Positions 244 to 4,741 of a stretch of DNA of 15,426 bases are shown here, in pieces (position 1 is the stretch's first letter; every line of letters starts with the position of its first letter). Location of the stretch: the IMG/VR virus record IMGVR_UViG_2651869755_000004; one strand, given 5' to 3'. This stretch comes from a virus. Its lineage: Duplodnaviria > Heunggongvirae > Uroviricota > Caudoviricetes. Below the pieces are notes generated by a model. That model was given only the letters and a program-made list of their open reading frames with translations. It had not been told where the DNA came from and ran no database searches. A program made the position numbers and the translations under genes.

Positions 244-3200
244 TCAGCTGATACTGATGCCTGCGGTGGCTTTCTTCATCACCACAACCAGCAAATCGCT
301 GATACTTGCTGTGGGATACCAGTTATTCACCAGCCATGCTGACACCGAAAACTCCAGCGTCATGTGGCCGCGACCAGCTGGCATATCAATAACACCACTG
401 TAAATCAGCGTATTATCCAGCGCGGTACGGTTATAAATTTCAGCACCGTTTTTCCGTACTATCAGGCGGCATGACGAATAAATATCGTTATTCTCCCGCT
501 CATGTTTAGCGCCGCTGAATGCCACCGCCGGAATAACAATTTGCCTGTCAAAAGGCTGATCGTCATAAATCCTGACGGTAATGGTCCCTGATGGCCACCG
601 CTCCGGTGCCCGGGAGTCCCGCGGAAAAGCCTTACCCACTGTTTTGACTATATCGCCTTCAATCTGGTTGGCTGACAGTTTCCCCTTAATCTGACAGTTC
701 TCATTAATTGTGACATTGTTGAGCGTCCCGGCGTTCGCATTCACACTGCCACTGATATCTGCATTTTTAGCGGTCAGTTTTCCGTCCGGTGTCAGGGAAA
801 ATGCCGGAGGATTACCGCCGCTGGTAATGGTGGGAGCCGTCAGGCGTTTCAGGAACACGTCGTTCATGAATATCTGATCGCCCTGACCAACAAACATCGG
901 CTTTGTGTTGCCATTCGCAGGATTAATCATCGCAATCCTGTCTGCCGCCAGCAGCACCTGACTCTGCATTCCTGCTGGCGTATTCTCAATACCGGCACCG
1001 ATACCCGCAATATAAAGGCGTCCGTCCTGCATCTGCTGCAGCTTCACAGCCCACATGCTGTTCAGATTATTATTTGTATCAACCTGAACCTTCTGTATCT
1101 GCTGGATTGCCGCACTCTGATTTTCCAGTTTTTTATTGACGGTCTGCGTGATTTCATTGCTGACATCCGTAATGGACGTCCTGATTTCAGCCAGGTCAGG
1201 CGCAAGCTGACCGTTATCAATCTGCGTCCACAACTCCTGAGCCAGATGGGTTTTCCCTATCTCTCCTTTGAAAAAATTCAGATAGCCGGATGCATCATCA
1301 CTCGGCTGGCCAACAGCCTCCACAAATGCCGATTTGCCAACGGTGTTCACACTGCGGATGTAAAAATAATAATCATGGCCCGGTTTGATATTGATACTGG
1401 CAGCTATCCAGTACAGCGCCGAGCCAAGATAGCGGGCTGCGGTTTCAACCTGCCTGATATCCGCAATCCGCTTTTCCGAGAACCAGAACTCAAACTGTAC
1501 CGTCGGGTCATACACCGCAAGACGCGGGACCGCCGTTATCTGAAAATAGCCCGGCGTCAGCTCAATCCGCGACGGTGCTGCCGGTGCGGCAATCCGGAAT
1601 GTGGTGGTGGCAGGTTCACCCTGCTGGCCATAGCTGTTTATCGCCCGCACCGTCAGGGTGTATTCCCCGAGCGGCAGGCCGCTGAAACGGTGCTCCGTGT
1701 CTGCGGTGATGGCGGTGGTCACCAGTCTGGCATCCGTTCCCTTACCACTGGTCAGGCGCAGACTGAAGCGCACACCCTTCACCACCCGCGGCGTGTCCCA
1801 TTTCGCCTGCGCCAGATACTGACCGTCAGCTGCGCTCACCTCCACCGTCAGGTGCTGCACTGCCGGTGGGATGACGCTGTTCAGGGAACCTGACTGCGGC
1901 TCAAAGCGGGCACCGTTATCCACGATGGCTTCTTTTTCCGGTACGTGCTGCACCGCCGTGATGGCAAAGGTGCCGTCCGTGTTTTCCCGGACGGAGACAC
2001 AGCGGAACAGGCGACGGCGCAGTGACGGCAGGGAGAGTCCCCACACCCCGTATGTCTCCACACCATCAGGCAGGGTACTGACCTGTATCCGGTCCGGCGC
2101 GGGGTGTGCGGTGATGTCCACACTCACCGGCTTACCGCTGCCGTTAATCAGGTTCACCGTGGCGGCACCGGTCTCCGGAAGTGTCACTTCACGGTCCAGC
2201 GTCAGGGTGCGGGTGGCAGCATCAATGGACAGGACACGTCCGCCGGTCAGGGTCCCGGCATAGTCGTTATCACAGATTTCAATGATGTCACCGGGTGTGT
2301 GCCGCAGCCCCTGAGACCCGAGCGTGAAATCCACCGTCTGCGTTTCCAGCAGTTCGGTCTTTATCACCCACAGTCCGGCACGGTGGGCCTGACCGCGGCT
2401 GGTACAGCCGAACGCGTCCATCTTCAGCAGGTTGCGTCCGTAGCGCAGTATGGCTTCCGGGTCTTCCACCAGTTCCGTGGAGGTCTGCCAGCCGTTCTGC
2501 GGGTCGGTGTAATTCACCTCCACCGCCGTGTGCCGGTCCTTCAGGGCACTGAAGCTGTAGCGGAACCCCACGCCGTTATCATCCACCACCACATCGCTGT
2601 TGGTGTACGGCCACACCACATCCGACGGACGGTCCTGAACGAACGTCAGCGTCTGGCCGTTCCATACCGGCATACAGCGCATCGCCGAGCAGAAATCACT
2701 GAGAACGTCCCACGCCTTACGCTGTTGTGCCAGGTACGCATTAAAGGTCATCCGCGGCTCGGTCCCCCCGAAACCATCCGGGACCGTCTGGTCGCAGTAC
2801 TGCCCGATGGCATACAGCGCCCACTTGTCCACATCCGCCGCCCCCAGACGTTTTCCCATGCCGTAGCGCGGGTGAGTCAGCATGTCCCACAGACACCAGG
2901 CCGGGTTGTTGCTGTATGCCGGTTTCAGGCTGCCGTCCCAGATACCACTGTACGTGCGTTTTTCCGGGTCATAGTTTGACGGCACCTGGATGATGCGACC
3001 GCGGATATGGTAGTTCACCGTCATCTGCTGGCCGCCGAACTGCTCCGCATCCACCTGCAGCCCCACAATGGCCGTGTTCGGGTAGCACTGTTTCACATCG
3101 ATGATTTCGGTGTATGACGACCACAGCGTCTTATTCTGCAGCTGGTCCGTGGTGCTGTCCGCCGTCTCCCTGACCATCCGGATGTTAAAGGGCCGGGGAG

Positions 3201-3717
3201 GCAGATTATCCAGAATCACCGAGGCCAGGAACTGCGAGGTGGTCTTGCCGTTAATGGTGACGTCCTTTTCTGTCACCCAGTTACCGTTACGCTGTAACTG
3301 AATCAGCAGGCGGACGGATGCCGGGTTACGGTCACCCTTTGAGGTGGTCTCCACCAGTGACTGCACCCCGAAGGTAACCCGCAGGCGGTCAATGTTCGCG
3401 GACGTAATGGTGCGCGTCACCGGTTTTGCCTTCGTCACTTCCACGCCCAGTCCGGTTTCAGCTCCGGAGGACTCAAAGCCTTCCGGTGGTGTCTGCTCCT
3501 GCTCCCCGGCACGCCAGACCGCGGTCACACCGTGTATCACGGGATTACCGTCCGTGTCCGTCAGCGGGGTTTTGTTCACCAGGATACTCTGCAGTCCCTT
3601 CACCGGGCCTTCTATCGGTCCCTCACCAATCGCATCAATCACACTCATCATCTGCGTGGATTTGAGATTATCCTTCGCCTCACGAGGCGTGTGTGCCTTA
3701 CCGCCACCTTTTCCCAT
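244..3717 (-). CDS. J: Tail tip / host specificity protein J (central tail fibre), 1157 aa
   Basis: ORF begins [22 protein letters not shown] and ends ...ATAGISIS, recognisably lambda gpJ along its whole length (lambda J is 1132 aa). GGGGAAGG ribosome-binding site lies about 5 nt upstream of the ATG at 3717. Confidence 0.97.
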
Positions 3718-3820
3718 ACAGCCTTCCCCTGAATAAATTAACCGCCACTTGCCATTCCGTACAGAAGTCGGATATCCTTCGCCCGAAAAGCATGAAACAC
3801 ATTTCTGCCATGCTAAAGAG

Positions 3821-3856
3821 AAACCCCGGTATCAGCAGATACCGGGGTTTTCTTTC
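3821..3856 (+). terminator. Intrinsic terminator-like hairpin in the I-J insert, possibly bidirectional
   Basis: Plus strand AAACCCCGGTATC-AGCA-GATACCGGGGTTT forms a 10-13 bp GC-rich stem with a 4-nt loop, followed by TTTTCTTTC. The minus-strand reading is followed by a weaker U-rich tract (TTTCTCTTT). Confidence 0.45.
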
Positions 3857-3922
3857 ATGCCCACCGATAATCCTGTTGGTTAAAACCGGTAATGGCATAA
3901 AAATTCTGAATATCTTCACATT

Positions 3923-3950
3923 TTCACAAACTGACTGTGGCGCGTATAAT
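3923..3950 (+). promoter_or_regulatory. Candidate sigma70 promoter on the strand opposite the tail genes
   Basis: -35 TTCACA (3923..3928), 16-bp spacer, perfect -10 TATAAT (3945..3950). An A/T-rich stretch lies upstream (3893..3913). Predicted transcription start near 3957. Confidence 0.4.
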
Positions 3951-3956
3951 TTCTCT

Positions 3957-4053
3957 GCGTTAATTTTTTTGTCGTGATATAAGAATAATTCCTTACACTT
4001 AATCTTCGTAACTCTCCCGCAGTTCCTGTCCGCGATCACTGCGGGATTTTTTT
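3957..4053 (+). ncRNA. Candidate small RNA of about 95 nt defined by the promoter and the downstream terminator; function unknown
   Basis: The interval between the predicted start and the terminator U-tract has no ORF with a ribosome-binding site on either strand. It is AT-rich and ends in a GC stem plus U7, the usual architecture of enterobacterial Hfq-type sRNAs. Prediction only. Confidence 0.3.
4016..4053 (+). terminator. Rho-independent terminator, plus-strand specific
   Basis: CCCGCAGT (4016..4023) pairs with ACTGCGGG (4038..4045), then A plus seven T (4046..4053). The minus-strand reading has no T-tract, so it is directional. It ends 8 bp before the I stop codon. Confidence 0.6.
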
Positions 4054-4060
4054 ATTCTTT

Positions 4061-4741
4061 TTACCCCTGCCGCCCGATAACCACGACCTTTCCGCCCCCG
4101 CCTTCATCACGGGTGCTGATGTCCTGGGATATACGGCGGGAGCCAACCAGCATTTCCCCGTAAGGCACCGGCATCGGGTTCCCCTGGGCAATCATGTTAT
4201 CCAGTGAGGAAAAGTACGTGTTCTGTCTGCCGTTATCCGTTGCGCGGTAATCCGGTGTTTTTGCCTTCGGGGCCAGCATCTGGGCCACACCGCCCAGAAT
4301 CATGCTGGCTCCAAGTGAAAACAGCATCGTGGTGGCAGAAAAACCACCGGCTGCCAGGGCTGAACCCCATAACGCCATTGATGCCCCGGCAGTGAAGAAA
4401 GAGCCCACGATGGCTGCCGCCCCCAGCACAATCTGCAGTCCACCCTTTCCGGCCCCGGCCAGTCGCGGCACAATGTGGATGACCGTTCCCTCACCCAGCT
4501 GTTCGTGAAGACGGGCGTACACCGCCTCCGGTGCCGTGTCATAACCGGCAATACGTATCTGGTACCAGCCTTCGTTCATCTGACGGCGAAAGCCCGGCAT
4601 CTGCATCGACAGGGCGCGAATGGCTTCCGCTGCCGTGTTCACATACAGGCTGAGGCGGCGGCCAAATCGTTGTAAATCCCCGTGAAGGCAGATGCGTGCC
4701 AGTGGCGGTGACGCCAGACTGAATGCGTTCGTCGTTGCCAT
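4061..4741 (-). CDS. I: Tail tip assembly protein I
   Basis: 226-aa ORF MATTNAFSLASPPLARICLHGDLQRFGRR...KVVVIGRQG matches lambda gpI from memory, including the Gly/Ala-rich hydrophobic central segment. Correct position between K and J. Confidence 0.95.
   Translation of the reverse strand: MATTNAFSLASPPLARICLHGDLQRFGRRLSLYVNTAAEAIRALSMQMPGFRRQMNEGWYQIRIAGYDTAPEAVYARLHEQLGEGTVIHIVPRLAGAGKGGLQIVLGAAAIVGSFFTAGASMALWGSALAAGGFSATTMLFSLGASMILGGVAQMLAPKAKTPDYRATDNGRQNTYFSSLDNMIAQGNPMPVPYGEMLVGSRRISQDISTRDEGGGGKVVVIGRQG

Follow-up and report, generated by a model that had tools for sequence, protein, structure and literature searches.

What kind of element lies between the tail genes I and J of a lambda-like phage when the gap between them is longer than the one in lambda itself? 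The question is raised by the IMG/VR virus record IMGVR_UViG_2651869755_000004 (Caudoviricetes), of which a stretch of 15,426 nucleotides (nt), called the window below, was analysed over its full length. The tail genes lie on its minus strand, and the non-coding gap between them occupies exactly positions 3718 to 4060, or 343 base pairs (bp). The original prediction, made from the letters of the window, had described this gap as a horizontally acquired, non-coding moron. As read from the comparison of related sequences, the gap is composed of two independently assorting modules, module A (3894-4060) next to I and module B (3718-3893) next to J. The description as an acquired moron holds for module A and fails for module B, which is a variable spacer. 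There is good reason to regard module A as a small RNA (sRNA) gene of the PasB/EcOnc22 family, present as a divergent and unannotated allele, and the element in the window is thus a new allele of a known kind and not a new kind of element.

Module A has the layout of a complete non-coding transcription unit on the plus strand, antisense to the tail operon. Its predicted features are as follows.

3900 to 3950, plus strand: sRNA promoter region, with an AT-rich conserved upstream block, AAAATTCTGAATATCTTCACATTTT
3923 to 3928, plus strand: sigma-70 -35 hexamer TTCACA, separated by a 16-nt spacer from the -10 hexamer TATAAT (3945 to 3950)
3957 to 4053, plus strand: predicted primary transcript of 97 nt, its start placed from the -10 hexamer; it begins with the start region GCGUUA, followed by a U7 run at 3964 to 3970
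3981 to 3989, plus strand: A-rich ARN tract, AAGAAUAAU
3990 to 3994, plus strand: UCCUU
4001 to 4007, plus strand: conserved core AAUCUUC
4016 to 4053, plus strand: intrinsic terminator, in which CCCGCAG (4016 to 4022) pairs with CUGCGGG (4039 to 4045), followed by A and U7 (4047 to 4053)

The predicted promoter agrees with the consensus at 11 of 12 positions, a better match than chance would give, and the terminator ends 7 nt short of the I stop codon. On the tail-sense strand the terminator lacks a U run, so it is one-directional and should not stop transcription in the tail sense. The U run, the ARN tract and the terminator with its U7 tail are the sequence features of an RNA that binds Hfq. 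The promoter region also holds two overlapping TTCACA hexamers at 3915-3928 (TTCACATTTTCACA), only the second of which is in register with the -10; the first hexamer and the AT-rich upstream block are the more conserved across alleles, and might represent not a -35 but an UP element or the site of a regulator.

Relation to PasB and EcOnc22-24

PasB (E2348CN_0006) is an 83-nt RNA of prophage PP6 in the enteropathogenic Escherichia coli (EPEC) O127:H6 strain E2348/69, described by Pearl Mizrahi et al. (2021, PMC8550237) and again by Zhu, Shabalina and Storz (2026, bioRxiv 10.64898/2026.05.13.724894). It has been validated by northern blotting with the probe AATCCCGCAGTGATCGCGGAGCT, its stability depends on Hfq, its level being strongly reduced in an hfq mutant, and the level is higher under the non-activating growth condition (PMC8550237). 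RIL-seq (in which interacting RNAs are ligated and then sequenced) assigned it 37 interactions, described as including core-genome and virulence transcripts (PMC8550237); its function is unknown according to the literature. The annotation of PasB runs on the minus strand from 1466343 to 1466261, between E2348C_1436 and E2348C_1437 (PMC8550237). The tail genes of this locus are on the plus strand, where the last position of I is 1466255 and the first of J is 1466496, with a gap of 240 bp, and these coordinates place PasB directly after the I stop codon and antisense to the tail genes, with its 3' end 6 nt from that stop.

The predicted gene in the window occupies the same place within the I-J gap of the tail operon, directly 3' of the stop codon of I and on the other strand. 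The window and E2348/69 align base for base across promoter and terminator, and the promoter region is nearly identical. The two genes also share the terminator stem, identical and with a U7 tail, the GCGUUA start, the U run, the A-rich tract, the AUCUU core and a similar length. They differ in the terminator loop, which is 5 nt longer in the window, in about 33% of the body, and in what lies next to the sRNA, namely the 176-bp module B in the window and a 74-bp spacer in E2348/69. The northern probe for PasB matches the minus strand of the window at 4048-4029 in 20 of 23 nt, and the position homologous to the annotated 83-nt RNA is 3972-4053 on the plus strand. A covariance model built from 11 alleles, with all window-type alleles excluded, finds 3957-4053(+) at 70.7 bits (E 1.9e-10), over its full length (model positions 1-96 of 96) and as the sole match in the window, and gives no match in lambda or in the Enterobacter-type loci.

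The homology is not visible to the settings of the published census, which used a word size of 28 and a query coverage above 75% and described the variants of PasB as differing by a few nucleotides (bioRxiv 10.64898/2026.05.13.724894). The window allele and PasB of E2348/69 are 72% identical globally and their longest common word is 25 nt; blastn with the E2348/69 PasB as query gives no match to the window allele at word size 28, and at word size 11 aligns only those 25 nt, or 30% of the query. Because the longest word and the coverage both fall short of the census settings, the window allele is missed by them, and this reflects a limit of the settings, not of homology.

A second set of RNAs bears on the same locus. 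EcOnc22 (prophage Sp15), EcOnc23 (Sp14) and EcOnc24 (Sp11) of the enterohaemorrhagic E. coli (EHEC) O157:H7 strain Sakai are homologous Hfq-bound RNAs, identified as Hfq peaks by CRAC (UV cross-linking and analysis of cDNA); EcOnc22 gives a northern band of about 85 nt and is destabilised without Hfq (Tree et al. 2014, PMC4104026, Table S2). The coordinates of that table lie 128-146 nt below those of NC_002695.2, as measured on AgvB by comparing the peak in the paper with the Rfam match. In NC_002695.2 all three EcOnc22-24 peaks are within I-J gaps of 240 bp and antisense to the tail genes, and after a shift of +128 to +146 the EcOnc22 peak covers the body of the PasB-like RNA. The three Sakai copies are identical to one another; they share promoter layout, core and terminator with the gene in the window, from which the Sakai gap differs in overall identity (about 71%) and in its -10 (AATAAT). 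PasB and EcOnc22-24 are thus most probably one family at one locus, an equivalence that has to be inferred because it depends on the coordinate shift between Sakai genome versions. It is not stated in the PasB and EcOnc literature examined: the PasB row in the table of EHEC homologues is empty (PMC8550237), and a 2021 review gives the targets of EcOnc22-24 as unknown. Two literatures, on PasB in EPEC and on EcOnc22-24 in EHEC, would thereby be joined. Prophage sRNAs rewire host gene expression in pathogenic E. coli and few have been studied.

Several observations weigh against assigning the gene in the window to this family as an active sRNA gene. The ends, the existence and the Hfq dependence of the window RNA are extrapolated from alleles that are 72% (E2348/69) or about 71% (Sakai) identical, and the mapping of EcOnc22 relies on an inferred shift of the Sakai coordinates. 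The predicted start at 3957 is 15 nt upstream of the 5' end homologous to that of PasB, which implies either that the RNA is processed or that the published end of PasB is approximate. The most divergent alleles (g14 type) have no -35 hexamer in this register, so what is conserved upstream may in part not be a -35. Lastly, the terminator stem CCCGCAG/CUGCGGG is invariant in 14 of 14 distinct alleles (a family member is expected to have at least six U after the stem, and the window has seven); in a covariation test the only consensus helix was this terminator, with 7 pairs and 0 compensatory changes, so that covariation supports no structure. The anatomy, homology, position, strand and distribution of the gene, and its lack of a coding signal, are established in the present work, while expression, Hfq dependence and RNA partners come from papers on other alleles.

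Two other families of prophage sRNAs, AgvB and AsxR (RF02702 and RF02703), were considered for the window RNA and rejected, as neither matched within 3650-4130 at gathering score or at E up to 10, under conditions in which RF02702 does find AgvB in Sakai. AgvB and AsxR resemble the window RNA in being moron sRNAs of prophages that bind Hfq and have their own promoter and terminator, and both families combine a conserved 3' part with a variable pairing region. They differ in lying downstream of PR' at the Q/stx moron site and in their length of 51-60 nt, whereas the gene in the window lies in the tail operon. Over the whole window no Rfam family reaches its gathering score, and the matches that appear at E up to 10 are all weak chance ones, driven by hairpins; PasB itself has no Rfam family. 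In Sakai Sp10 (locus L098, 528-720) a match to STnc100 (RF02076, 145.8 bits) adjoins AgvB on the opposite strand, the two genes converging.

The cargo slot and its alleles

The distance between the I stop and the J start was surveyed over 92 loci with relatives of the I protein, wherever both genes could be placed, together with E2348/69 and lambda. The gaps and their contents fall into the following classes.

60 bp, lambda: hairpin only
86-90 bp, Enterobacter, Pantoea and Rahnella: hairpin only
234-259 bp, E. coli prophages: sRNA module and tail-sense terminator
295 bp, E. coli prophages: sRNA module, with the big hairpin lost and the J-proximal segment alone kept of module B
336-344 bp, window type: sRNA module and module B
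662-666 bp, Enterobacter wuhouensis and Pseudocitrobacter: tail-sense open reading frame (ORF), phrog_8179
851-903 bp, E. coli prophages: antisense Cu,Zn superoxide dismutase gene, PF00080

Neither lambda nor the relatives in Enterobacter, Pantoea and Rahnella have the sRNA module, which occurs in E. coli prophages as discrete alleles. The commonest combination joins an sRNA allele of the E2348 type to a module B that is 99-100% identical to that of the window, from which it follows that the two modules assort independently. The original prediction had I and J of lambda directly adjacent, which is incorrect: the last position of lambda I is 15444 and the first of J is 15505, and the 60-bp spacer between them (15445-15504) contains a tail-sense hairpin followed by a T run. 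The net extra DNA in the gap of the window compared with lambda is therefore about 283 bp. The spacers of relatives were also inspected for I or J coding sequence, and they are not that. Module A conforms to the definition of a moron by Juhala et al. (2000, as quoted in PMC4104026) in being extra DNA between I and J that neither lambda nor the 86-90 bp class has, and in being equipped with its own predicted promoter and terminator; its fractional content of G and C (GC) is 0.365, compared with about 0.58 in the flanks.

The slot receives other cargo as well. The superoxide dismutase gene (sodC; PF00080, E 4e-32) is antisense and has its own terminator, and the neighbouring I protein is 97-100% identical to that of the window. 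This moron shares its insertion point and its antisense orientation with the sRNA moron and differs from it in coding for a protein. In the 851-852 bp gaps (L079, L012, L074, L052 and L049) the sRNA promoter has given way to sodC and its terminator, while the body and terminator of the sRNA stay; in the 903-bp gap (L086) sodC lies beside an intact sRNA gene. In Enterobacter wuhouensis (L009) and Pseudocitrobacter faecalis (L006) the slot contains a tail-sense ORF of 181-185 amino acids (aa) with a lipoprotein-like signal (LLISAC), which matches phrog_8179 (E 7e-73, function unknown) and is separated from J by a terminator hairpin. The variety of this cargo (an sRNA, sodC, a lipoprotein-like gene) indicates that the I-J junction is a recurrent cargo slot, which fits the idea of a moron.

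RNAs of the window type were found in 800 of 5,426 complete E. coli genomes (about 15%) and those of the E2348 type in 956 of the same 5,426, so that the spread of the PasB family is about double what the BLAST census at word size 28 suggests. The full 343-bp gap is present in 1,445 complete E. coli genomes at a coverage of at least 80%. The window allele is essentially invariant, with 613 records at an identity of at least 99%; among the matches listed, no RefSeq record carries an annotation under it, and the exact matches come mostly from human isolates. The gap of the reference strain E. coli ATCC 25922 is 100% identical. Phage records with the window allele include PhiR5_1 (97.6%) and phages carrying Stx1a and Stx2c (94.9%). 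In a scan of species-representative genomes the close matches besides E. albertii were mislabelled or contaminated contigs, and the distant relatives were without the sRNA module. An I product 91-98% identical to that of the window is encoded on short contigs that bear the labels Streptomyces flavalbus, Parendozoicomonas haliclonae and a Clostridiales metagenome-assembled genome (MAG), which are among loci L003, L005, L012 and L008, and a contig labelled as a Geobacteraceae MAG has an I gene of the Enterobacter type; these odd labels probably reflect contamination or mis-binning. For annotation, the covariance model and the clear landmarks of the gene are a practical gain.

Conservation along the gene was measured as the mean pairwise identity of 27 distinct alleles taken from more than 80 loci, with the following result.

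Upstream block and -35: 93%
-10: 91%
Start region GCGUUA: 87%
sRNA body: 66%
AAUCUUC core: 89%
sRNA linker: 58%
Terminator 5' arm segment: 86%
Terminator loop: 68%
Terminator 3' arm and U run: 96%

The sRNA modules of the alleles are 64-100% identical to that of the window. Their indels are 1-7 nt long and not multiples of three, and nearly all of them have a UCC motif and an A-rich tract made up of ARN-like triplets. The RNA body shows differences of 30-42% from one allele class to another, compared with 5-16% at the four-fold degenerate sites of I and J, although the former value is somewhat inflated by the uncertainty of alignment in a body rich in A, U and indels. The nucleotide sequences of I and J are mostly 94-100% identical between allele classes, and within a class the module is almost invariant. 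This pattern suggests either that a pairing region diversifies on a fixed scaffold or that old allelic cassettes are exchanged. The former possibility can be extended to a tentative proposal, which at present is the less likely outcome: that the locus is a seed-swapping cassette, in which a fixed promoter and Hfq scaffold carries a fast-diversifying pairing region and each allele would control a different host regulon. These differences support the proposal, together with the identity of 86-96% across classes in the promoter, the -10, the start region, the core and the terminator arms. If it were true, the window allele, which is as common as the PasB allele that has been studied, would be an unstudied regulator with its own targets, to which module B could add a second small RNA. 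Natural alleles that combine a fixed scaffold with different pairing regions are in any case a convenient system for studying how the target sets of sRNAs evolve.

Possible roles of the RNA and of module B

The proposed function of the window RNA is as follows. The RNA would be made from its own sigma-70 promoter opposite the tail genes, and would hence be independent of the late promoter. It would be about 97 nt long as a primary transcript, perhaps trimmed to about 82 nt, and would have the usual layout of an Hfq-dependent RNA, with a 5' U run, an ARN tract, a single-stranded body containing the AAUCUUC core, and a terminator hairpin with U7. It most likely would act in trans on host and prophage mRNAs of the lysogen, as the E2348/69 copy does in RIL-seq; because its body is unlike those of the studied alleles, its target set probably differs too.

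Action mainly in cis is the first alternative that must be weighed. The RNA is fully complementary to the I-J intercistronic region of the late mRNA, whose cleavage or decay could set the level of J relative to I or silence J; in the converse variant, the abundant late mRNA would soak up the sRNA upon induction. The gene is indeed antisense to the I-J spacer in every allele and locus examined, and the sequence of its body varies more than do its position and orientation. The same slot, however, also takes sodC or a lipoprotein-like gene, so that position alone need not mean a role in cis, and the 37 RIL-seq partners reported for PasB of E2348/69 show interactions in trans (PMC8550237). Nor is pairing with the late genes significant: when pairing of the sRNA with the translation start region of each of the window's 17 late genes was compared with shuffled controls, the best z was -2.4, which is not significant over 17 tests. 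The two roles are not mutually exclusive, and a mainly cis-acting RNA is considered unlikely.

The remaining part of the gap, module B, has the following predicted features.

3857 to 3898, minus strand: stem-loop AUGCCAUUACCGGU...AUCGGUGGGCAU, between the sRNA promoter and the terminator-like hairpin
3821 to 3850, both strands: 13-bp GC-rich hairpin AAACCCCGGUAUC / GAUACCGGGGUUU with its loop at 3834-3837, bidirectional and terminator-like
3718 to 3814, minus strand: J-proximal leader, which includes the J ribosome-binding site
3789 to 3814, minus strand: small tail-sense hairpin, in which AGCAUG (3789-3794) pairs with CAUGCU (3809-3814), followed by UUUU
3749 to 3778, plus strand: weak promoter-like site, agreeing with the consensus at 9 of 12 positions

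The hairpin at 3821-3850 is flanked by U-rich runs, UCUUUC on the plus strand and CUCUUUAG on the minus strand, and the stem-loop at 3857-3898 is 96-100% conserved in all window-type gaps. The central part of module B folds much better than shuffled sequences on both strands (z -6.5 and -6.9), and the last 98 nt before J are not unusually structured (z +0.9). A tail-sense GC hairpin followed by a U run just upstream of J occurs in four contexts unrelated in sequence: lambda, the Enterobacter/Pantoea/Rahnella class, the 234-259 bp class (where the scan calls a terminator in Sakai, L095 1042-1065) and the window class. The hairpin of the lambda spacer has the same position as that of module B, shortly before the J ribosome-binding site; the spacer differs from the gap of the window in being 60 bp long, in having no antisense gene and in showing no sequence similarity.

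Late transcription in lambda is made resistant to terminators by Q. Since a late polymerase modified by Q ignores terminators, the hairpin of module B would act only on unmodified polymerase. It could thus stop polymerase that lacks the Q modification, coming from either direction, and thereby shield J and the sRNA promoter in the prophage, with late transcription modified by Q reading through. A literature search for a role of a terminator or hairpin between lambda I and J returned nothing relevant. Evidence from natural variants stands against this insulating role: the hairpin is dispensable, because the 295-bp variant is without the big hairpin and the sodC variants are without the tail-sense terminator. 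The role is put forward as a possibility that falls somewhat short of an even chance.

Module B might instead hold a second small RNA, either of about 70 nt on the plus strand (about 3785-3856), transcribed from the site at 3749-3778, or of about 84 nt on the minus strand (about 3899-3816). On both strands the fold consists of a stem-loop and a terminator with a U run, joined by an A/U-rich linker (z -6.9 and -6.5), the 96-100% conservation of module B is slightly above that of the flanking genes, and on the plus strand there is the promoter-like site. A match at 9 of 12 positions is, however, at chance level in shuffled sequences, and no promoter was found on the minus strand. In the 234-259 bp class the hairpin is too near the PasB promoter for a separate transcript, and in a natural variant it is deleted; no Rfam family is found at threshold, and there is too little variation in module B to test its structure. 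A second RNA is thus as doubtful as a mainly cis-acting one.

It might also be held that the sRNA gene of the window allele is a decaying relic, and that the gap is an AT-rich recombination scar in which only the hairpins work. The body has diverged by 28% from the validated PasB, the expression of the window allele is predicted from its letters, and the 851-bp sodC variants have lost the promoter and kept the body. Decay would not readily leave a promoter with 11 of 12 consensus positions and an intact terminator with U7, a near-invariant allele in 800 of 5,426 genomes and in phage records, or a conservation concentrated in promoter, start, core and terminator, and a relic is therefore highly improbable.

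That the gap codes for a small protein can be dismissed almost entirely: ORFs of sufficient length exist (113 aa at 3698-4039(-), 94 aa at 3693-3977(+) and 44 aa at 3749-3883(+)), but they start with GTG or TTG and, as the original prediction had noted, lack ribosome-binding sites and run through hairpins, a search of Pfam and PHROG matched none of the gap ORFs and brought up no conserved protein, their frames are shifted by indels of 1 nt between gaps that are identical in all else (variants g28 and g29; lengths of 342, 343 and 344 bp), whole ORF segments are replaced by unrelated sequence in the 240-bp class, and the substitutions and indels between alleles have no three-base pattern.

Boundaries and composition of the gap

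The gap is bounded by the following features.

244 to 3717, minus strand: J-like ORF of 1157 aa, tip attachment or host specificity protein J, with its ATG at 3715-3717
3722 to 3729, minus strand: J ribosome-binding site GGGGAAGG, 4 nt ahead of the J ATG
4061 to 4741, minus strand: I-like ORF, tail assembly protein I (PF06805, Lambda_tail_I, E 6e-17), with its stop TAA at 4061-4063

The J-like ORF matches six GpJ domains of Pfam (E 1e-30 to 1e-41), and the RefSeq version of I in ATCC 25922 is shorter, at 193 aa. The distance of 343 bp between I and J and the separate ribosome-binding site of J, both of which had been predicted beforehand, agree with these ORF coordinates and with the site found. 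So does the composition: the gap had been called richer in AT than the tail genes, and its GC is 0.417, compared with 0.569 in J, 0.601 in I and 0.563 in the window. It is the stretch of 343 nt with the lowest GC in the window, an equally low value being reached only at 15 start positions (3716-3730), and it lies about 3.5 standard deviations under the mean over all 343-nt stretches.

The window and the prophage of ATCC 25922 are about 94% identical over the head and tail genes and 88% identical at the 3' end of J, where positions 1-954 were compared with locus L099 8065-9018. Over positions 955-1423, inside J, megablast gives no alignment to that prophage. J is 1157 aa long in the window and 1230 aa in ATCC 25922, and the I-J gap is nonetheless 100% identical; such an identity between differing flanks suggests either mosaic exchange or a stronger constraint on the gap. 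Positions 1-243, which lie 3' of the J stop codon, contain a tail-sense terminator, GGGCGCCAGAAATGGCGCC followed by T6, and beyond it the start of a gene for a Lom/Ail-like outer-membrane protein, MRKLCAAILSAA, which is the classic J-lom arrangement of lambda.

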